Origin: Candidatus Bathyarchaeota archaeon
GTDB lineage: Archaea > Thermoproteota > Bathyarchaeia > TCS64
Reading direction: 5' to 3'
Assembly (NCBI GenBank): GCA_020346605.1
Contig: CP070784.1
Coordinates: forward strand, 2,008,105-2,072,104
DNA: 64,000 nt
The stretch's first letter is position 1. The number at the start of each line of letters is the position of its first letter. Below are positions 3,208 through 59,237 of the stretch, in pieces. A program made the position numbers and the translations under genes. The notes below the pieces were generated by a model. The model saw only the letters and a list, made by a program, of their open reading frames with translations, was not told where the DNA came from and did no database searches.

Positions 3208-3978
3208 TCATCTCTTCTCGGCCACGTACAGGACTGAGAGGTAGGGCCTCGTTACGGCTCCACCGTACTCCTCTTCAAGCAACTCGCCGATGCCGTCGTA
3301 CAGCTCCCGTCTCCTAGGCGGTTCAAGGCTCCTGTGGTCTGAGTAGGTGTCCAGGAGCTTAATGTACTGCTCCTTGGTGAAAACCCTCGACCACGGATAC
3401 CTCCGGACCTCCACCTTCCCGAATAGGCCCGAGCCATCGATGACCGCTTCCCTCTCCCTTATCTTCTCCTCGGTCGTGGGGATGTCGCTGATATCTCCCC
3501 ACTCTGGCACGACGCTCCTGTACACCCTCTGCACATCGCTGAAGAATCCGGTGTAAGGCGTCGGATGCATGTTCCAGAACAGAGCGATACTGCCCGTGTC
3601 CTTCAGTGCCTGAGCCGCCTTGAGGTAGCCGATCTCGGCTGGGATCCAGTGGAACGCCGTGGCGGATATAAGCAGGTCGAAGAAGCCCTCCTCCGGCTTC
3701 CATTCCTCGAAGGAGACGTTCCGGATCTCCACCTTCGGATAGGGTGCACAGTTCCTGCGAGCTATCACCACTAGCTCCTTCCCGATGTCCAGGCAGAGCA
3801 TCTCGTATCCGCGCTTTGCGAAGGGGATCGTGGCCTGACCTGTGCCGCAGCCGACTTCGAGTATCCTTCCTTCCGCCGGGACGCCGGAGATGCGCACGAC
3901 GTCCTCTATCAGCTCCTCGGGGTATCCGGGGCGGACCTCGTCGTACTCTCGAGCCACTCCATCAAAAATTTTTTCCAT
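3208..3978 (-). CDS. class I SAM-dependent methyltransferase
   Basis: 256 aa with SAM-binding motif I ILEVGCGTGQAT followed by an acidic residue at the end of beta-2 (MLCLD). Confidence 0.85.
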   Translation of the reverse strand: MEKIFDGVAREYDEVRPGYPEELIEDVVRISGVPAEGRILEVGCGTGQATIPFAKRGYEMLCLDIGKELVVIARRNCAPYPKVEIRNVSFEEWKPEEGFFDLLISATAFHWIPAEIGYLKAAQALKDTGSIALFWNMHPTPYTGFFSDVQRVYRSVVPEWGDISDIPTTEEKIREREAVIDGSGLFGKVEVRRYPWSRVFTKEQYIKLLDTYSDHRSLEPPRRRELYDGIGELLEEEYGGAVTRPYLSVLYVAEKR

Positions 3979-4139
3979 GGATAGTCCGCTTCAAGCGTCG
4001 TAGCTGATAGCCAAGGATATTGTGAATTCACATAATAAAAAGGGAGAACCTTCATGGAGATGGGGAGAAGAAATCGTGTTAACAATCCATTTTAGGCCTA
4101 GATTAAACTTAAAATTTCCATCGAAAATCTTGAAACCCC

Positions 4140-4658
4140 ATGAGAAGGAGTGTCTCCAGGGGGGCCTCGGGGAGCACCGTCGTCTTGGCCAGCCTGCTCT
4201 TGGTCAGCCTTGGGCTCAACGCCGGGATATGGTTCCTCAGATACAGCCAGGGGTCCGCAGCGGGGTACGATGAGGGATACGCCCTGGGCTTCCAAGCGGG
4301 ATCGGGGGGAGGCTACAACGTCAGGGACCCCACATACGCTGAGGCGATGGACTTCATCGAGATGGACGACACCGACTCGTTGGGCTACAGAGACGACTTC
4401 GACTGCACCCGATTCGCGGCCGCGTTCAAGCAGAACGCCTTCGAGGAGGGCATCAGGTGCTACTACGTGAACGTCTACTTCAAGGGATCCACGGGGCACT
4501 CGATAGTGGCGTTCGACACCGTTGACAGAGGGTTGATCTTCATCGAGCCCCAGCACGACCAGGAGGTCAACCTAGTCAAGGGGAGCTCATACTGCGAGCT
4601 CAACGACCTCCAGGGAGTCAATGATGACGTGATTATCGACTACGTCTTGATACCGTAA
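4140..4658 (+). CDS. membrane-anchored hypothetical protein
   Basis: 172 aa with an N-terminal signal-anchor helix (VVLASLLLVSLGLNAGIWFL) followed by a soluble domain. No family recognised. Confidence 0.6.
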   Translation: MRRSVSRGASGSTVVLASLLLVSLGLNAGIWFLRYSQGSAAGYDEGYALGFQAGSGGGYNVRDPTYAEAMDFIEMDDTDSLGYRDDFDCTRFAAAFKQNAFEEGIRCYYVNVYFKGSTGHSIVAFDTVDRGLIFIEPQHDQEVNLVKGSSYCELNDLQGVNDDVIIDYVLIP

Positions 4659-4702
4659 CCAGACTTCGAATATGTGGACACAGGCCCGGAACTAACATTT
4701 AC

Positions 4703-5161
4703 TTACTCTTTCATCCGCTCATGGAGGCCCGAGGTTGCAGCAATCTGCCCCTCGTGGTGTATGATCTCGGAGACCAGCCAGAGGATGGACCACTCCCGGG
4801 TCCTCCCGCCAAAGTAGTCGATCTCCTCGGCGAGGACCTCGTCGGTGAGTCTGTCCAGCTCTGCCATGAGCGCCTCCCTCCCCGCCTTCAGGTCTCCTAG
4901 AATCTTCTCAAGGGAGTAGTCACTGTTGCCCACGTAGTCGTCGGGCCAGCCCTCGGGCTTGTAGCCCTTTCCGCCGAAGAGCACCCTAGGGAGGACGACG
5001 TGGAGGATGTAGGCCTCGTGTGTGAGGAACCACCTCAATGTGTTGGCCTCCGGCGTGGGCCTCCAGTCCAGCTGTTCCTCTCTGAGTCCTTTGGTCAACT
5101 CGTCCAGCCTGTTGAGGCCTATCCCGGTAATGATCTTGATCACGTCGACTCGTGCTGACAT
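4703..5161 (-). CDS. DinB-family protein (YfiT/DinB_2-like)
   Basis: Motifs EEQLDWRP...TLRWFLTHE and C-terminal IIHHEGQIA. Paralogue of 26274..26738. Start set at MSARVD (ATG 5161) by alignment with the paralogue and a CTATATAATC box about 29 nt upstream; the ORF track start is 5200. Confidence 0.75.
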   Translation of the reverse strand: MSARVDVIKIITGIGLNRLDELTKGLREEQLDWRPTPEANTLRWFLTHEAYILHVVLPRVLFGGKGYKPEGWPDDYVGNSDYSLEKILGDLKAGREALMAELDRLTDEVLAEEIDYFGGRTREWSILWLVSEIIHHEGQIAATSGLHERMKE

Positions 5162-26250: not shown

Positions 26251-26273
26251 TTGATTCCTTGCAATCCTTGCTC

Positions 26274-26738
26274 ATGTCTGAGAAAGTAAAGACGATTAAG
26301 GCCTTCGCGGAGGTCGGATTCAGCCGTCTTGATAGAGCAACCAAGGACCTGACTGAGGAGCAACTGGACTGGAAGTCCTGCTCTGAGGCCAACACTATAC
26401 GATGGATCATGACGCACATCAACAGCGAGCTGTACACCTTCATACCCAAGATACTGAAGGCCGACAAGGAGTATACGCCTGAGGGCTGGCCCTCGGACTA
26501 CATCGGCAACGAGAGCTACTCCCTTGAGAAGATCATGAAGGACTACGTAGAGGGGAAGGAGAAGGTACTAGAAAAACTGGGCAAGGTCACTGAGGAGACC
26601 CTGGCCAAGGAGATGGACTGGTTTTACGGTAAGGTACCTGTGGAGAACTACCTGATGCTGGCAGTTTCCGAGATACTGCACCACGAAGGGCAGATCGCAG
26701 CCATCCTCGGCGTCGAGAAACGGATGAAGGGTACATAG
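26274..26738 (+). CDS. DinB-family protein (YfiT/DinB_2-like)
   Basis: 154 aa from ATG 26274 with EEQLDWKS...TIRWIMTHI and C-terminal ILHHEGQIA. Paralogue of 4703..5161. Confidence 0.75.
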   Translation: MSEKVKTIKAFAEVGFSRLDRATKDLTEEQLDWKSCSEANTIRWIMTHINSELYTFIPKILKADKEYTPEGWPSDYIGNESYSLEKIMKDYVEGKEKVLEKLGKVTEETLAKEMDWFYGKVPVENYLMLAVSEILHHEGQIAAILGVEKRMKGT

Positions 26739-26750
26739 GCACCAATAAAA

Positions 26751-26771
26751 TTCCTTTTTTTCTTTTTTATT
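26751..26771 (+). terminator. oligo-T terminator between convergent genes
   Basis: TTCCTTTTTTTCTTTTTTATT, 13 nt after the DinB stop. Confidence 0.5.
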
Positions 26772-26833
26772 GAGACAATGTCAAGTCGTGTGGCTTATTG
26801 AAGTTGAGGTTCCCCAACAATCGACGAGTTTCT

Positions 26834-27808
26834 CTAGGAAGGCAGTTCTATTTCAATCCCCGTTACTTCCTCGAATCGATCTGAAAAGTTCGTCTGAATC
26901 CTTGGGTGGCTCAACGCCATATGGCCCCGCCTCCCCTCCAGTATCCCCCAGAAACACCGGTGGGCCTCGTAGTACTCGACATTTTCGCTGGCTAAGGGGT
27001 TTTTCAGCTGGTAGAGGTTGAAGTATCGGTCGGTGAATTCGTGGAAATCCACGTCCAGATCGGGGAGGAGGGGGGGCGCAGCCTGGGCGCAGATCACCTT
27101 TGTACATGCCACGTCGTACGCCGCGTCCCAGACCCTGAACCCCGGCCAGTCCAGCACGCCACTCACCCGGTCGCCCTCCATTAGGATATTCAGGGGATGG
27201 AAGTCGCCGTGGCAGATGACAGGGTCAACCGGATCTGGTAGGATGTTGTCCCAGAGCCATCGGAATCCCCCGTCCAGCCAGTCGAAGCCACGATCGTCGA
27301 TCAGCCTCCTGACCCTGCTGAGCGTGCGATCCCGGGAGTAGGTGGGACTCGTGATCCCCATGGATTCCAGCTTCCTGACGAGGGGGTTCGGGTCGATGCG
27401 GTGCAGTGAAACGTGCGCCTCTGCCAGGGCCTCGGGCAGGTTCTCCTTCATCTCCAGCATGGGGACCCCGGGCATGCGCTCCATGACCATGAACACGCCT
27501 CCGAGGAAAACCGTGTCGGTGCACGTGAGGTGGACGCGGGGGGCAGGATAGCCCTCATCGGTGACAGCGTTCTGGACAGAGGCCTCGAAGAGGCACTGAG
27601 AGGGCGGTGTCTTCTCACTGTAAAGGCGCAGTATGAGGGGCCCTGACAACTCCTCCGTAGCACCGGTCAACTGGAATCCGTAGATCGATGTCTCATATCC
27701 TCCGGTGATGGGAGATGGCCTAGCTGAGTAAGCGAGGCCCGGGTCTTGGAACTCTTTCCTGAGGTAGGCCAGAAGTTTCTCCGGGATTCCGCCTAACACC
27801 TCATCCAT
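26834..27808 (-). CDS. phosphotransferase-family kinase (APH/choline-kinase fold)
   Basis: 324 aa with catalytic-loop motif ICHGDFHPLNIL and metal-binding VLDWPGFRVWD. Confidence 0.8.
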   Translation of the reverse strand: MDEVLGGIPEKLLAYLRKEFQDPGLAYSARPSPITGGYETSIYGFQLTGATEELSGPLILRLYSEKTPPSQCLFEASVQNAVTDEGYPAPRVHLTCTDTVFLGGVFMVMERMPGVPMLEMKENLPEALAEAHVSLHRIDPNPLVRKLESMGITSPTYSRDRTLSRVRRLIDDRGFDWLDGGFRWLWDNILPDPVDPVICHGDFHPLNILMEGDRVSGVLDWPGFRVWDAAYDVACTKVICAQAAPPLLPDLDVDFHEFTDRYFNLYQLKNPLASENVEYYEAHRCFWGILEGRRGHMALSHPRIQTNFSDRFEEVTGIEIELPS

Positions 27809-27822
27809 CCTCTCCTCACCGG

Positions 27823-28887
27823 TTACCCCAGTCTACTGAGCAGTGCCTCGAACTCGGGGAGCTTCAGACCGGTCTTCTCCACCAGGAGCCTGTAGACCTT
27901 GTGGAGGTGGTCCGAGGACTCCTTCATCAACTCGAGGGCGCCTGCCCGGAGCCCGACCTGTTCCGCGCCCATGGCGAAGGAGGAGGAGACGTCCATCAGC
28001 CTCCTCCCCATGGCGAGGACCTCGAAGTACTCGATGCCCCTGACCTCGGCGCCCGAGGCCTCCTCGTAGGACTCCAGGATGATGTCCCTCAGGGCGGGGT
28101 CGTCGTAGGTGCTCATAAGCAGCATCGTCCACGCCAGGTCCGCCCTGTAGTCCCCGGCCATCGCTGCCGTCCAGTCCAAGACCACGAGGGATCCGTCCTC
28201 CCTCTGCAGCACGTTCTCCGTGTGGTAGTCCTGGTGGAGGATGGACAGCTCGACGGGAGTGACATCGGCGGCGTGCTCCTCGAGCCAACCGATGACGGGC
28301 CGGAGCCAGCTGATGTTCGTCTCCTCGATCCTCGCCTTGGCCCTTGCGAAGATCTCTTCCAAGTAGTCCCGGGTGTCCCCCTGCAGGAACTCCCCGGGGA
28401 AGAGGCTGGCGCCGTCCAGACGGTGGAGTTGGACCCAGATCCTGGTGAACCCGGCCATCAGGGAGCGGGCTTCCTCCTCGGGGACGCTGTGGAGCGCTTC
28501 GGAGAGGGTCCGCCCCCTTACGTACTCCATGACCGTGAACGGCCCGCCGAGGAGGGAGGCGTCCGTCTCCAGATGGAACAGCTCGGGGGCCGGGAAGCCC
28601 GCCTCGAAGAGCCTTGAGATCACTTTGTACTCGTCTGTGGCCTTTTGTGTGGCGTGGTCGCCGAGGAAGAGCCGTATGACCCTCTCCTCCCTAGCGCGTC
28701 TGCCTGCCTCCTCGTACTCCACGACGTAAGTGTAGAGCTCCGCCTCCCAACCTCTGGTTATGTCCCTGAGCTCAGAGACGGTCAGCCCCCCACGCTCCGG
28801 GTGGAGACGCCCGTAGTATTCCTCGATCCTCTCCTTCGTGACGAAAGAGGAATTCTCCCCTGATGCAACCTTGTTTCCTGTCGTCAA
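27823..28887 (-). CDS. phosphotransferase-family kinase (APH/choline-kinase fold), paralogue
   Basis: 354 aa with ILHQDYHTENVL and VLDWTAAMAGDYRADLA. Confidence 0.8.
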   Translation of the reverse strand: MTTGNKVASGENSSFVTKERIEEYYGRLHPERGGLTVSELRDITRGWEAELYTYVVEYEEAGRRAREERVIRLFLGDHATQKATDEYKVISRLFEAGFPAPELFHLETDASLLGGPFTVMEYVRGRTLSEALHSVPEEEARSLMAGFTRIWVQLHRLDGASLFPGEFLQGDTRDYLEEIFARAKARIEETNISWLRPVIGWLEEHAADVTPVELSILHQDYHTENVLQREDGSLVVLDWTAAMAGDYRADLAWTMLLMSTYDDPALRDIILESYEEASGAEVRGIEYFEVLAMGRRLMDVSSSFAMGAEQVGLRAGALELMKESSDHLHKVYRLLVEKTGLKLPEFEALLSRLG

Positions 28888-29153
28888 TTTTCTATCGTCT
28901 CTCGGAGCCGATGTTTAACCTGAACAGCCACTCGATTACTCTTAAACATATGTTACCCGCTGCTTCTGGCGGTCCCCGCCACGAGCAGTGAGTAGGAGGA
29001 AAGGCACAGAGGAGGAGAGTCTATTATAGCTGTCCAAGCTCCAGAGGCCGTCCTTGGGCTCGCGCCGGAGACATCATTAAGTAGGAGCGAATGGGTACAC
29101 CAAGATCAGAAACCGGCATCTAGTGAACGCCATTAAAGGGTTGAGATAGTGCC

Positions 29154-29816
29154 TTGGAGAAGAGCCTTCTGGCGATCATCGCTCACCCAGACGATGAGAC
29201 ATTCGGCTGCGGAGGAACCCTCGCGCTCCACGCGGAGAAAGGCTACAGCGCAGGGGTGCTCTCCCTCACGTGCTCGGAAGACGAGAGGCGGCGCGAGCTG
29301 AACGAAGCCGTTGAAGTCCTCGGCCTAGATGAGCCCATCGTCTTCGACGAGAGGACCCTCAGCCCCGGCTCCGGCCTGATCCGACGGATCTCCGACGTGA
29401 TCGTCGAGCACAGACCCGAGATCGTCTTCACCCACCTCCCGATGGACTACCACAGGGAGCACAGGGTCGCTCACAACCTCGTCGTGGAGGCAGTCGAGTG
29501 GGCGGCCCACACCACGGCCTACGAGGAGCCGTGGCAGGTGAGGAGGCTGCTGCTGGTTGAGGTGAACACCCTCATACCGTTGCCCCACGTCCTCGTAGAC
29601 ATCTCGGACGTCTACGAGAGGAAGGCGGAGGCTATAAGGCGGTACGCCACGCAGGTCGCCAAGTTTGACTGAGGGTACTACCAGAGGTTCGACAGGAGCA
29701 AGGCGGAGCTCAGGGGGGTGCAGGGGAATTGCCGTTTCGCCGAGGCGTTCCTCGAGGAGCCTCTGGCACGGAACGGCCCCTTCTACGAGGTAAAAGCCAC
29801 CAAGAGCCTTCTCTGA
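29154..29816 (+). pseudogene. PIG-L/LmbE-family deacetylase (BshB-like) interrupted by in-frame TGA at 29670-29672
   Basis: N-terminal AHPDDETFGCGGT and HREH motifs. The ORF stops after AKFD, but the same frame continues as GYYQRFDRSKAELRGVQGNCRFAEAFLEE, which contains the family's C-terminal (Y/F)AEAF motif. Total length would be about 220 aa. Confidence 0.7.
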
Positions 29817-29891
29817 TTTTGCTTTCTTGGAAGTTCCGAGAAAATCTTTAAACCCAACATACTGGTTGAATACACCGACAGGTGGAGCCCA

Positions 29892-30836
29892 ATGAATCTG
29901 TACGGACTCAAGGTGATCGACTTCCACTCCCACGTCCCGCTGCAACGCTCGGGCCGCCGGCGGAGCTGGAGGCAGAGGATGGTGGAGAGGTACGGCGAGG
30001 AGAGGACCGACATCATCCTGGAGAACTCGAGGCGCTACAGGGACGAGTGGAGGAAGATGTGGGCCTTCGGCCCCCCGGAGGAGGCGGTCCACAGCGACCA
30101 GGAGCAGGCGGACCGCTGGGTCGCCGACATGGACGCTAAGGGCCTGGAGAGGGTGAACTTCGTGATGGGCGGCGGCAACGAAAACCTCGCCAAGATCGTT
30201 GAGATGCACCCTGACAGGTTCACCGGCTTCGCCCACCACGGCGTCGTCAGCGAGGGGGCCGACAGGGAGCTGGAGAGGGCGGTCGAGGAGCTGGGGCTCA
30301 GGGGATTCAAGATGATCGCCTCCAGCCAGAGGACGTCCATCGACGACGAGTCCGCCTACCCGGTCTGGGAGATGGCTGAGAAGCTCAAGGTGCCGGTGCT
30401 CATCCACTTCGGCGTCCTGGGAGGCGGCGGCGGGCCCGCCTACGACCTCAGGAACATGAACCCCCTGACGCTGTGGAAGGTCTGCTCCGAGTTCCCCACC
30501 CTGGAGTTCGTGATCCCCCACTTTGGAGCCTGCTACTGGCGCGAGCTGCTGCAACTCTGCTGGCAGTGCCCCAGCGTCAGCATCGACACCTCGGGAAGCA
30601 ACCAGTGGATGAGATGGATGCCCGACGACCTCAACATGAAGGCGCTGTTCAGGAAGGCTGTGGAGACCGTAGGCCCCGGCAGGATCATCTTCGCCACCGA
30701 CTCCAGCTACTTCCCCAGGGGCTTCGCCGTGGAGTATCTGAGGGAGCAGGTCAAGGTCTGCTACGACATGGGGCTGGAGCAGAGCAGTATCGAGAAGATC
30801 TTCCACGGGAACGCCGCGAGGCTCCTGAAGCTATAG
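29892..30836 (+). CDS. amidohydrolase_2-type metal-dependent hydrolase
   Basis: 314 aa with VIDFHSHVP, HFG and ATDSSYFP motifs (TIM-barrel amidohydrolase pattern). GGTGGAG lies 4 nt upstream of the ATG. Confidence 0.75.
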   Translation: MNLYGLKVIDFHSHVPLQRSGRRRSWRQRMVERYGEERTDIILENSRRYRDEWRKMWAFGPPEEAVHSDQEQADRWVADMDAKGLERVNFVMGGGNENLAKIVEMHPDRFTGFAHHGVVSEGADRELERAVEELGLRGFKMIASSQRTSIDDESAYPVWEMAEKLKVPVLIHFGVLGGGGGPAYDLRNMNPLTLWKVCSEFPTLEFVIPHFGACYWRELLQLCWQCPSVSIDTSGSNQWMRWMPDDLNMKALFRKAVETVGPGRIIFATDSSYFPRGFAVEYLREQVKVCYDMGLEQSSIEKIFHGNAARLLKL

Positions 30837-30875
30837 TGAGGGCCTCACGGCTCTGATGGGATCCATCCACCCGTT

Positions 30876-32681
30876 TTGAAAGGTTTTTATTACGTTCCGG
30901 CTTTGATTAGCAGAACAGGGCAATCAATCGGGGTTAAATTGACGGAGAACACGAATCCACCAGCCCACGAACTCTACTCCAGCCACGTCGAGGGAGTGGA
31001 AGGCTCCAAGGTCGCCCCCAGGCTCTGGGGAGACATCCCCACCACGATGAGGGAGGCACACAGGCTCCTCTTGAAGAAGAGGGGAGAATATGGGGCCGCG
31101 CCCGACGCCCTCGAGGAGCTCAAGAGGGAGATGAAGGGCAACCTCAGGAGAATGGGGGTCCTGACGTCCAAGGTCGAGGAAGGCATCGACCGCATGGATG
31201 GGGGCGTCGTGGAGACAGGGCAGCAGCCCTATTGCCTTGGCGGCTCCAGCCTCATCCTCAACAAGATCGCCTATATCCACAGCCTCAGCGAATTGTGCGA
31301 CGGGGACCTCACACCACTGTTCTACGTCGCAGACTACGACGGCGTCCAGCCCGAGCTGCTCAACACGAGGCTGCCCAGCCCCTCCCCCAGGGGGCTCCTG
31401 ATCACGTACCCTACCGGCCCGGAGGAGACCGACGTCCCCATCTACAGGGTCCCGAACCCCGACGAGGACTGGCTGAGGAGTACGCTGGAGAGGATCGAGG
31501 GGAGCTACAAGGGCATCCTGGGAGATGTTGATGGGGGCGTCCGGTCCAGGACGCTTCTGAACCTCGCCCACTGTTTCACCGTGCTGAGAAACTCGTATCA
31601 CTCGACGGAGAACGTCTCGGACTGGTCCACCAAGACGATCGGCTCGGTCGTCAACCTCGAATCCGACCTCGGGGTCCCCATCTACCCATTCTCCATGCCC
31701 GGCACCCGCCGCCTCTTCCAAGGGGGTTACGAGCTGCTCCTTGCCGAGTCGAACCGGAGTAGATTCGTCGAGGCCTCCAACGATGCGTGCGGACTGGTGG
31801 AGGACTCCGGGTATCGGAGCCAGATAGGACGGCGGTCCGAGGACTACGTGCCCTTCTTCTTGGAGTGCCCGACCCCTGGCTGCAAAGGCAGGAGGGTTGA
31901 GCTGAAGTACCGCAGAGACCCGGGCTCCGCCAGCGCATCCGTCTCGGGGAAGTGCCCCCGTTGCGGCGAGGTCCACGAGTTTTCCTTCGACGCCAGCAGC
32001 CCCGACCTCACTGAGATCGTCGGCATGATCAGCCCAAGGGTCGACTCGCGGCAGGTCATCGTGGACTCGGTGATCCCCGTGCTGGCCCACGTGGGCGGCC
32101 CGGGGGAGACGAGCTACTACGCTGAGGTGATCCCTGCGGCGAAGGCGTTGGGGATACCGTTCCCCGTCTACCTCAGGTACAACAGGACTTTCTATAACAC
32201 CCCCTGGAATGCGGCCCTTGCGGAGAGGATCAGGGAGAGAAGCCATCCTACCATCGCCGGTGAGGGGCTGTTCTCCGCATTGAGCGGGTGGGTGGACGCC
32301 CGGAACGCCGGCGACGGGGAGAAGCTCAGGGGAGCCCATTCGGATATCAAGGGCTCCATCGAGGCCTCATACAGTGGACTACTCAACGCCCTGCAGTCCC
32401 TTCAGTCGGAGATCGACTCGATAAAGCGGAGACTGAGCGAGTCAGGAGACAGGCAGCCCCTGATAGCAGAGATGCGGGGCAAGCAGGACGAGGCTAGGCT
32501 CATCGAGCACTACCTGTCCATGGCCTTCGGCCGATTCAGCCCGGAGAAGTTCGGTCAGGAGGTGAACTGGGCCTGGCTGGACCTGGCGGCGGCCTCGGGG
32601 CTCGGGGACGTCATGGGGGTCTTCCTGCGCGAATACAATGAGAACACGCCGAACTCGTCGATGTTCTACATCAACCTCTAG
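30876..32681 (+). CDS. bshC: BshC-like protein (putative bacillithiol cysteine-adding enzyme) with Zn-ribbon insert
   Basis: 601 aa. The core VETGQQPYCLGGSSLILNKIAYIHSL...PLFYVADYDGVQPE matches the GGQQ...(W/Y)VAxxDHD region I recognise from BshC. The start is uncertain: TTG 30876 or TTG 30939, which lies downstream of a TTTTTATTA box. Confidence 0.65.
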   Translation: MKGFYYVPALISRTGQSIGVKLTENTNPPAHELYSSHVEGVEGSKVAPRLWGDIPTTMREAHRLLLKKRGEYGAAPDALEELKREMKGNLRRMGVLTSKVEEGIDRMDGGVVETGQQPYCLGGSSLILNKIAYIHSLSELCDGDLTPLFYVADYDGVQPELLNTRLPSPSPRGLLITYPTGPEETDVPIYRVPNPDEDWLRSTLERIEGSYKGILGDVDGGVRSRTLLNLAHCFTVLRNSYHSTENVSDWSTKTIGSVVNLESDLGVPIYPFSMPGTRRLFQGGYELLLAESNRSRFVEASNDACGLVEDSGYRSQIGRRSEDYVPFFLECPTPGCKGRRVELKYRRDPGSASASVSGKCPRCGEVHEFSFDASSPDLTEIVGMISPRVDSRQVIVDSVIPVLAHVGGPGETSYYAEVIPAAKALGIPFPVYLRYNRTFYNTPWNAALAERIRERSHPTIAGEGLFSALSGWVDARNAGDGEKLRGAHSDIKGSIEASYSGLLNALQSLQSEIDSIKRRLSESGDRQPLIAEMRGKQDEARLIEHYLSMAFGRFSPEKFGQEVNWAWLDLAAASGLGDVMGVFLREYNENTPNSSMFYINL

Positions 32682-33805
32682 CCCCGGACGACCTTCTCGT
32701 AAATCTCCTCGTACTGGCTGAGGACCCTTTCAGAGGTGTACCTCTCCAGCACCGTCCTGCGCGCAGCCTCGCCCAGCCTCCTCCTGAGGGCTCCGTCCTC
32801 GCTGAGCTCAAGAATCCTCTGGGCGATGGCCTCCGGGTGCTTCGGCTGGACCAGGAATCCGTTGACGCCGTCCTCGACGATCTCGGGAATCCCGCCGACC
32901 TCCGTGGCGACCACTGGGAGTCCGCAGCTCATCCCCTCCAGCAGGGTGAGGGGAGCACTCTCAGTCTCCGAGCAGAGGACCACGGCGTCGCTGCACCTGA
33001 GGAGGTTTGCGACGTCGCTCCTGTAGCCGGTGAGTTGTACGTTTCCGCGGAGGTCCAGGTGGTCGATGAGAGCCTCAAGCTTGTGCCTCTCGGGGCCGTC
33101 CCCGACGAGCATCAGGCGGACCCCGGGCTCCTTCTTCGCAACGATGTTAATCGCGTAGATGAGGTCCTGCACACGCTTCACCGGCCTGAAGTTGGAGATG
33201 TGGGCGACGACGATGTCCTTCTCGGCATCCCTCTCCAAGACCTCGCAGGGCGCCGGGCTGAAGGTCTCCGAGTCAACAAAGTTGGGTATGACGGCGATCT
33301 CCTTGGTGATGCCGAGGCGCTCGTAGGCCTCCTCCGCCATGAACTTGGAGACCGCCGTGACGGCGTCGGCCTCCTCCACCGAGTGAGTGTTCACGGGCAG
33401 GTAGGACCTGTCGCTGCCGAGGATCGTCACGTCGGAGCCGTGAAGCGTCACCACGTAGGGCACCCCCGTTATTCCCCTGGCCAGCAGGGCGGCGGTGGCG
33501 TGGGGGATGCTGTAGTGGACGTGGAGCAGGTCCAGCCCCTGCTGCTGGGAGACCCTGAACATCTCCGAGCCGAGGGCGATGGTGTAGGGCGGGTACTTGA
33601 AGAGGGGGTACTCGACGACCGTGACGAGGTGGACGTAGACGTTGTCGTGGTCGACCCCCTGGATCGCCACTGGCCTCTCGTACGTGATGAAGTGGACCTC
33701 GTGGCCCCTCCCAGCCAGCTCGACGCCCAGCCTGGTGGCGAGGATTCCGCTCCCTCCGACTGTGGGGTAGCAGGTGATGCCTATCTTCAACTTTGTCGAA
33801 CTCAA
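32678..33805 (-). CDS. bshA: N-acetyl-alpha-D-glucosaminyl L-malate synthase BshA (GT4)
   Basis: 375 aa. N-terminus KLKIGITCYPTVGGSGILATRLGVELAGRGHEVHFIT and FKYPPY are hallmarks of BshA. A GT4 EX7E region (VATEVGGIPEIVEDGVNG) is present. It shares a CTAG stop overlap with bshC. Confidence 0.8.
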   Translation of the reverse strand: MSSTKLKIGITCYPTVGGSGILATRLGVELAGRGHEVHFITYERPVAIQGVDHDNVYVHLVTVVEYPLFKYPPYTIALGSEMFRVSQQQGLDLLHVHYSIPHATAALLARGITGVPYVVTLHGSDVTILGSDRSYLPVNTHSVEEADAVTAVSKFMAEEAYERLGITKEIAVIPNFVDSETFSPAPCEVLERDAEKDIVVAHISNFRPVKRVQDLIYAINIVAKKEPGVRLMLVGDGPERHKLEALIDHLDLRGNVQLTGYRSDVANLLRCSDAVVLCSETESAPLTLLEGMSCGLPVVATEVGGIPEIVEDGVNGFLVQPKHPEAIAQRILELSEDGALRRRLGEAARRTVLERYTSERVLSQYEEIYEKVVRG

Positions 33806-53011: not shown

Positions 53012-53896
53012 TTGGAGTACGGCGCTCAATCCGAGTACGGCCGCCTCAGGAAGGTGCTGATGCACTGGCCCACGGAGGAGATGAGGAGGATCACACCGGG
53101 GAACAGGGGCTCGTACCTCTTCAGGGACGTGGTCTACTGGAAGGAGTTTCAAAGGGAACACGACGTCTTCACGGACGCGCTGAGGGGGGAGGGGGTCGTT
53201 GTGCTCCTGATGGAGGACCTCCTCCAAGAGGGGAACTCCAGGACCGCCGCGAACCTGCCCAACCTCGTCTACACGAGGGACGTATGCACAGTGAATAGTC
53301 AGAGGGCCTACACGCCGAGGGTGACCTACCAGGCCAGGTACGCCGAGCCCCTCCTCGTCGAGAGGGTGATGAAGGAGCTCGGGATCTCCATCGCCCACTG
53401 TGTCACACCTCTAGGGGTCGTCGAGGGGGGAGACTTCGTCTAGCTCAACGAGGGGACCGTGATGATGGGCTTCGACACCCGGAGCAACGAGGTCGGTGTC
53501 GAGGAGTTCGTCGCCGTCATACTGCCCTCCTTCCGAGTCCATCTGGACGGGGCGCTGATGATGGCCACCGACCTCGCCCTGTTCCACAAGGCCTCCCTCG
53601 GCCTCTTCCCGGCATATGTGTATGACCGGAATGGGGGGGTGGAGATCGCCTACTTGGAAGAGTACCTGAAGGGAAAGGGGGTGGAGCTCGTCTACGCAAA
53701 CGACACCGAGATACGGATGTTCGGCACCAACATCATCGGCCTCGGCGGGGGCAAGTGCGTCTCATACGAGTGGAACGAGATGATCATGGGAATCTTGGAG
53801 GAGCGGGGCTTCGACGTCATCGGCATACCGGGGAGCCAGCTCAGCATCGGGGGCGGCGGACCCCACTGCAGGACCTGCCCCATACTCCGGGACTGA
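53012..53896 (+). pseudogene. amidinotransferase-fold (arginine deiminase/DDAH-like) gene interrupted by in-frame TAG at 53441-53443
   Basis: The two ORFs 53012..53443 and 53459..53896 are in the same frame. Reading through gives VVEGGDFV[TAG]LNEGTVMMGFDTRSN ... GGGGPHCRTCPILRD, colinear with 38890..39759. Confidence 0.7.
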
Positions 53897-58520: not shown

Positions 58521-59237
58521 TTGCACATAGTGTTCATCGGGGCGCACCCCGACGACGAGACGTCGGCCAGCGGCACCATCGCCAAGTACACCGCCCAAGA
58601 CCACAGGGCCACCATCGTGATGGCGACCCGTGGCGGACGGGGCCACTGGAAGATCCCCAGCGACGAGCTGGAGGCGATCCGGGAGGAGGAGATGGGGAAT
58701 GCGGCGGAGATCCTAGGGGCGAAGGTCAGGTTCCTGGACCACAGGGACGCCGACGTCCCCGGTGGAGACGCTTTCAGGGAGGAACTCGTGGACGTGGTTA
58801 GGGAGCTGAAGCCGGACGTGGTCATCACCTTCCACCCGCAGGTGTGGAGGGACGACCACAGGAGGGTAGGCCTGGCCGCGGCGGACGCCTGCTTCAAGGC
58901 CTGCCTCCCCCTGGTGGAGACCCGGTTCCCGGCGCACAGGCCGGTGCCGGACATCTACTTCATCGGTAGGCCCATGGTCCCCGTGGAGCCGGACACGTAC
59001 ATCGACATCACCGACCACATGAAAGTCAAGCTCGAGGCCTTCAGGCAGCACAGGAGCCAGTGGGTGAAGTGGGACATCGACGATGACGACAGCACCATGC
59101 CCATCGAGGAGATCGAGGCCATGATGCGCCACAGGGCCCGGCAGCGCGGCATGGAGTCAGGGGTCACCTACGCAGAGGCCTTCATCTCGCAGTACCTCCG
59201 CAAGAGGGCCCTCGACTTTTTCCCGCTGAAGCGGTGA
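58521..59237 (+). CDS. PIG-L/LmbE-family deacetylase
   Basis: 238 aa with FIGAHPDDETSASG, HRSQ and TYAEAF. The TTG start directly abuts the GH4 stop. Confidence 0.85.
   Translation: MHIVFIGAHPDDETSASGTIAKYTAQDHRATIVMATRGGRGHWKIPSDELEAIREEEMGNAAEILGAKVRFLDHRDADVPGGDAFREELVDVVRELKPDVVITFHPQVWRDDHRRVGLAAADACFKACLPLVETRFPAHRPVPDIYFIGRPMVPVEPDTYIDITDHMKVKLEAFRQHRSQWVKWDIDDDDSTMPIEEIEAMMRHRARQRGMESGVTYAEAFISQYLRKRALDFFPLKR

Follow-up and report, generated by a model that had tools for sequence, protein, structure and literature searches.

An in-frame TGA interrupts a BshB-like PIG-L deacetylase gene in a Bathyarchaeia genome and is probably a recent nonsense mutation

Does the in-frame TGA that divides a PIG-L/LmbE deacetylase gene in a Bathyarchaeia genome mark a gene that was lost very recently, an error in the assembly, or a codon that is still read as sense? 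The gene occupies positions 29154-29816 on the plus strand of the window, by which we mean the whole stretch of 64,000 nucleotides analysed here. Its open reading frame begins with a TTG start codon at 29154, runs through codons 1-172 (29154..29669) and meets a TGA at codon 173 (29670..29672), in the context GAC TGA GGG. Past this stop the frame stays open for another 47 codons (codons 174-220, 29673..29813; GYYQRFDRSKAELRGVQGNCRFAEAFLEEPLARNGPFYEVKATKSLL) up to a TGA at 29814-29816. The latter is the natural stop of the gene, as the closing CTC TGA is common to all four of the aligned sequences, namely the window copy and its nearest relatives. Neither a second stop nor a frameshift was found in codons 174-220, which we refer to as the tail. 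Termination at codon 173 gives a product of 172 aa and read-through one of 220 aa, which falls within the 215-242 aa spanned by homologues. A sequence-only reading of this DNA had proposed that the TGA splits the gene and that the read-through protein would have the normal size of about 220 aa, and both proposals are confirmed; its count of 48 codons past the stop is right about the continuing frame but includes the terminal stop. With its TGA at codon 173, the window copy lacks the unbroken frame of about 220 aa that characterises the family.

The portion of the gene upstream of the stop matches PF02585 with 75.3 bits (cut-off 28.2) over residues 6-114, corresponding to profile positions 1-129. 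The entire Pfam PIG-L domain and the metal-binding motifs are thus located before codon 173: AHPDDE lies at residues 10-15 and DYHREH at residues 98-103, with H100 and H103 forming the HxxH pair. In our family alignment (A1), H11, P12, D13, D14, E15 and H103 are invariant and H100 is present in at least 90% of sequences. The tail has no Pfam match of its own because the Pfam PIG-L model ends at residue 114. It does carry the AEAF motif that had been recognised by comparison with the intact paralogue at 58521..59237, and in A1 the four residues concerned (A196, E197, A198 and F199) are invariant across 17 homologues including that paralogue.

In its fold, the read-through protein resembles two groups of characterised deacetylases. 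An AlphaFold2 model of it (mean pLDDT 88.5, pTM 0.87) matches BC1534, TT1542, B. subtilis BshB and Pyrococcus Dac over their full length with TMq values of 0.80-0.85 (0.84-0.85 to 2ixd and 0.83 to 1uan). BC1534 (BcZBP) and B. subtilis BshB1 (2ixd, 6p2t and 6ull) are GlcNAc-malate deacetylases of bacillithiol synthesis, and the window gene shares with them the full-length PIG-L/LmbE fold (TM 0.81-0.85), the HPDD and HxxH metal motifs and a C-terminal YAE(A/G)F strand; the family profile aligns with the solved structures 2ixd and 6p2t through the C-terminal YAEGF (E ~1e-27). The window gene stands beside a true BshA gene and a weakly matching BshC-like gene. However, identity to BC1534 and BshB1 is only 24-26%, the host is an archaeon and this copy is interrupted by a stop. 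Scores against the BshB1 (TIGR04001, 97.7 bits) and BshB2 (TIGR04000, 59.2 bits) models also fall below the respective cut-offs of 182.5 and 195.25. Fold and context thus justify the name BshB-like, and the gene is at most a putative BshB. The second group, the archaeal diacetylchitobiose deacetylases (Dac) of Pyrococcus (8bgn, 3wl4 and 3we7), likewise has the PIG-L fold (TMq 0.80-0.82) and an archaeal host, but these enzymes are about 267-272 aa long as against 220 aa for the read-through protein, and no chitin-pathway neighbours are evident beside the window gene, which adjoins BshA, BshC-like and Amidohydro_2 genes instead.

The state of the stop column in other genomes indicates what the codon was before it became TGA. 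We searched the window's own genome and those of 40 relatives in all six frames and recovered the orthologue in 17 genomes (16 related ones and the window's own), and an internal stop occurs at only one of these 17 loci, that of the window; the 16 relatives are uninterrupted. A large protein database yielded 871 homologues, of which the best 120 are likewise uninterrupted and are 215-242 aa long; homologues carry the label Candidatus Bathyarchaeota. Each of these 120 extends past the stop column by 40 residues or more, so that orthologues do not naturally end at this point, and the similarity of the tail, which the sequence-only reading had allowed might prove spurious, holds in formal alignments. 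The residue occupying the column among the best 120 homologues is mostly Trp (W 96, E 10, D 6, G 6, R 2). The nearest relative (P0003, 90% amino-acid identity) has GAC TGG GAT in place of the window's GAC TGA GGG, and its gene is present with TGG and with the same neighbours on three independent JGI metagenome contigs (L013-L015). A single G-to-A transition at 29672 thus accounts for the stop relative to the nearest relative's TGG, as the same reading had suggested. Searches for a second assembly from the same population, by exact look-up of the 172-aa product and by two metagenome pattern scans that permitted either TGA or TGG, returned no match.

Protein identity between the tail and that of the nearest relative is 91%. 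We estimated omega between the window and L013 by the Nei-Gojobori method, splitting the gene at codon 173. Codons 1-172 differ by 25.5 synonymous and 20.5 non-synonymous changes (omega 0.23), and codons 174-220 by 11.5 and 4.5 (omega 0.08). Among the best 120 homologues, the mean frequency of the top residue is 0.79 in the tail and 0.77 upstream. Given the 91% identity and the omega of 0.08, the open frame of the tail is not a product of chance. These patterns of substitution indicate that translation of the tail persisted for nearly the whole period after divergence from the L013 lineage. This leaves three possibilities: a very recent stop, a tail that is translated even now, or a stop that is not genuine.

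The model also suggests what termination at codon 173 would cost the protein. Residues 172-190 are predicted to form a long helix and residues 196-202 a strand, both with high confidence, and the stop removes both. Having lost the C-terminal helix and the core strand bearing AEAF, the 172-aa product is likely to be unstable or to lack activity, even though it would keep the metal motifs.

We consider several ways in which the gene might nevertheless yield an active enzyme, one being that the 172-aa product is active alone or is complemented by a separately translated C-terminal peptide. The first version can appeal to the position of the full Pfam domain and the metal ligands upstream of the stop, and the second to an in-frame GTG at 29718 with a GGAG 9 nt upstream of it. 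However, none of the 120 closest homologues is so short, the lost part contains invariant residues besides the core strand, initiation at the GTG would give only 32 residues and miss most of the helix, and the GGAG is absent from the nearest relative; we regard an active short or split enzyme as highly improbable. Slightly less so, though still very unlikely, is a useful readthrough of the UGA by tRNA-Trp or another near-cognate tRNA, whether merely tolerated or regulatory, that would supply the full-length enzyme. Near-cognate reading of UGA by tRNA-Trp is a classic leak. It is discussed in PMC13092985 and PMC4150775, and here it would restore the native residue, Trp; the undegraded tail and the presence of another undegraded single-stop gene on the same contig also agree with it. 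Against it, the stop is found in none of the 16 related genomes and none of the 120 best homologues. The stretch of 100 nt running on from the stop shows no more stable folding than shuffled sequences do (z = +0.48; the same region in the nearest relative has z = −0.94), so the stable hairpin that programmed readthrough might use was not found downstream of the TGA, and no Rfam element was found around the stop. TGAG, the context of codon 173, is moreover the commonest four-base stop in the genome, with 63 cases among the 331 genes whose C-termini align to relatives and in which we counted stop usage. The one tRNA-Trp of the genome (anticodon CCA) has a normal anticodon stem of 5 bp, not the 4-bp stem of the tRNA-Trp form that has been linked to UGA reading (PMC13092985), and no suppressor tRNA with a UCA anticodon was found in this genome, which is estimated to be 93% complete. 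The suggestion of programmed readthrough or recoding, raised in the sequence-only reading, finds no support in orthologues, RNA signal, selenocysteine machinery or suppressor tRNA. The remaining form of recoding, in which this TGA stands for selenocysteine or TGA is translated as an amino acid in this organism, is the least credible of all and in effect refuted. A single observation speaks for selenocysteine: with introns allowed, ARAGORN labelled the locus at genome positions 1799299-1799393 (L016 403-494, minus strand) 'SeC (tca)', and without introns 'Pro (cgg)'. Both labels are mistaken. This sequence fits the general Rfam tRNA model, has an acceptor stem of 7 bp, lacks a long extra arm, and forms a bulge-helix-bulge with 3-nt bulges (GGA and AAA) around a 4-bp helix; the intron so defined is 17 nt long and sits at the canonical position 37/38, and without it the loop reads CU-UCG-GA, that of a tRNA-Arg(UCG). 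Neither a selenocysteine tRNA nor a match to SepSecS was found in the genome, at the completeness given above, and the homologue column holds Trp rather than Cys. Reassignment of TGA to Trp throughout the genome (of the table 4 type) is rejected, since TGA terminates 146 of the 331 conserved genes (44%; TAG 132, TAA 53), the tRNA-Trp is unaltered and the PIG-L gene itself ends naturally in TGA. None of these alternatives, whether readthrough, an active short or split enzyme, selenocysteine or a different genetic code, has much evidence behind it, and even taken jointly they have little claim on belief.

A more serious competitor is that the TGA is an artefact of sequencing, assembly or consensus calling, or a minority allele, and that the true gene has TGG and is intact; we think this unlikely but far from negligible. 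The genome is a 2.30-Mb Bathyarchaeia MAG (GC 57.9%) whose 104 contigs are linked by spacers of 100 N, with an estimated contamination of 6%, and no independent assembly with the same base was found in the collections searched. The gene is otherwise perfect and its tail is under purifying selection, and such an absence of decay is equally expected from an error. On the other hand, the site lies about 30 kb from both ends of a 65.8-kb contig (genome positions 2007404-2073170), the eighth longest, whose GC content (60.4% vs 58.1 +/- 1.7 for the bin) and tetranucleotide make-up (distance rank 35 of 51) do not stand out within the bin, and we therefore reject the idea that the contig is a foreign contaminant. 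We screened for disrupted genes by taking ORFs from 1.17 Mb of three relatives, running tblastn in both directions and keeping the best-scoring frame per place, which gave 572 query genes, 679 alignments and 201,000 aligned residues. The screen recovered the PIG-L TGA as a positive control. Only four of the 572 genes are hit by stops, five frameshift-like junctions occur, and in the reverse direction the relatives carry a similar or higher disruption load. The assembly is not noisy, and a level of about 1% disrupted genes is ordinary and like that of the relatives. The window's contig does contribute two of the four stop-hit genes while holding 24 of the 679 alignments (binomial P ~0.007); this clustering fits either relaxed selection on accessory hydrolase genes or a local assembly problem, the latter being a point in favour of an artefact. 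Hypermutation or damage of the G-to-A kind is rejected, as comparison with L013 gives 74 sites with G in the relative and A in the window but 115 with A in the relative and G in the window, and so is systematic base-calling error, as the contig's stop sites have no motif in common.

We therefore favour a recent nonsense pseudogene or loss-of-function allele, which we consider the likely explanation and which is an event of an ordinary kind. That option, too, had been named in the sequence-only reading, and it is supported by the TGG of the relative and by the intact orthologues. Under this explanation, a G-to-A transition would have converted TGG to TGA at codon 173 of a 220-aa PIG-L/LmbE deacetylase, and translation would now end there by ordinary termination, releasing the 172-aa product. 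The event would be very recent because the tail has no second lesion and bears the signature of purifying selection and because the other genes of the cluster are undamaged. The nonsense allele would be fixed, or at least the majority allele, in the population sampled. Any residual need for the deacetylase might be met by the paralogue at 58521-59237 or else by rare near-cognate UGA reading by tRNA-Trp, which would restore the native residue. In having a single Trp-to-stop transition in a conserved gene with intact orthologues, the locus is like ordinary unitary nonsense pseudogenes and segregating loss-of-function alleles, and its only oddity by comparison is the clustering of single-stop genes on one 65.8-kb contig. 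On its own the stop is of little consequence, being a textbook case of Trp changed to a stop in a gene that is not essential.

The genes around the PIG-L gene are conserved and appear undamaged. Between 26259 and 33805 the window contains, in order, a DinB gene, two divergent APH-type kinase genes, the PIG-L gene, an Amidohydro_2 gene (29892..30836, plus strand; PF04909, 133.8 bits), a BshC-like gene (30876..32681, plus strand) and a convergent gene for a GT4 glycosyltransferase of the BshA type (32678..33805, minus strand), the last three being intact. The BshA assignment is strong (TIGR03999, 418.6 bits vs a cut-off of 273.7), whereas the BshC-like protein of 601 aa is a weak match (PF10079, 34.5 bits; TIGR03998, 39.3 bits vs a cut-off of 265.8); linkage to a bshA gene is clear, that to a bshC gene tentative. 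The cluster is conserved in the nearest relatives (L013-L015), in which the PIG-L gene is intact beside Amidohydro_2. We accordingly reject Amidohydro_2 as a substitute specific to this genome for the broken deacetylase, as it also adjoins the intact PIG-L gene in those relatives.

If the gene is dead, the deacetylase step must be supplied elsewhere, as had been pointed out from the sequence, and the genome offers one other PIG-L gene for it. This is the paralogue at 58521..59237 (plus strand), which is intact, 30% identical to the interrupted gene and matches TIGR04001 with 107.5 bits, below the cut-off. It is a possible back-up deacetylase and the sole candidate for the step. An annotation of this genome should flag the BshB-like step of the archaeal cluster as disrupted, and metabolic reconstructions should not presume that it works unless the paralogue substitutes.

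The cluster itself is of wider interest than the stop because bacillithiol has never been shown in archaea; a 2020 review notes that BshA and BshC homologues occur in archaea while bacillithiol is undetected there (PMC7278568). The stretch from 26259 to 33805 has the make-up of a bacillithiol-type thiol pathway in an archaeon, a group in which the thiol was never detected (PMC7278568). This archaeal bacillithiol-type cluster is conserved in Bathyarchaeia; it is the more interesting object, and a finding separate from that of the stop.

The second stop-hit gene on the window's contig encodes a protein of the amidinotransferase/DDAH fold and is interrupted by a TAG at 53441-53443 (plus strand), where an orthologue has Trp. 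One might suppose that this TAG and the TGA at 29670, both in undegraded single-stop genes, are not independent but reflect a process shared within the lineage. We judge this very doubtful. If true, the process could be, for instance, tolerated or conditional stop-codon readthrough in Bathyarchaeia, under which cells would still produce the PIG-L enzyme, in reduced amount and with Trp at the UGA codon.

Several further observations concern interrupted genes in this genome and its relatives. The TAG at 53441-53443 stands in the context ...VVEGGDFV*LNEGTVMMGF..., and the orthologue with Trp is that of relative G019 (GGDFVWLDEETVMMGY), making this the second TGG-to-stop transition on the contig. 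Elsewhere, the gene at genome C1:1574455-1575572 has one TAG, one TAA and a shift of frame relative to its orthologue in relative G015, and is an older pseudogene with multiple lesions, unlike the single-lesion genes of the window. Another stop-hit gene, near genome position 2,196,800, has two TAGs close to its end. Among the relatives, the homologue of the gene at genome positions 2300204-2301850 (L018, G015:C21, ~3490-5123) has two in-frame TAGs and a frame junction, and the window genome's gene has Ser and Glu at the TAG positions. By a loose count over the genome and its relatives, TAG is the commonest internal stop, and it also terminates 132 of the 331 conserved genes.
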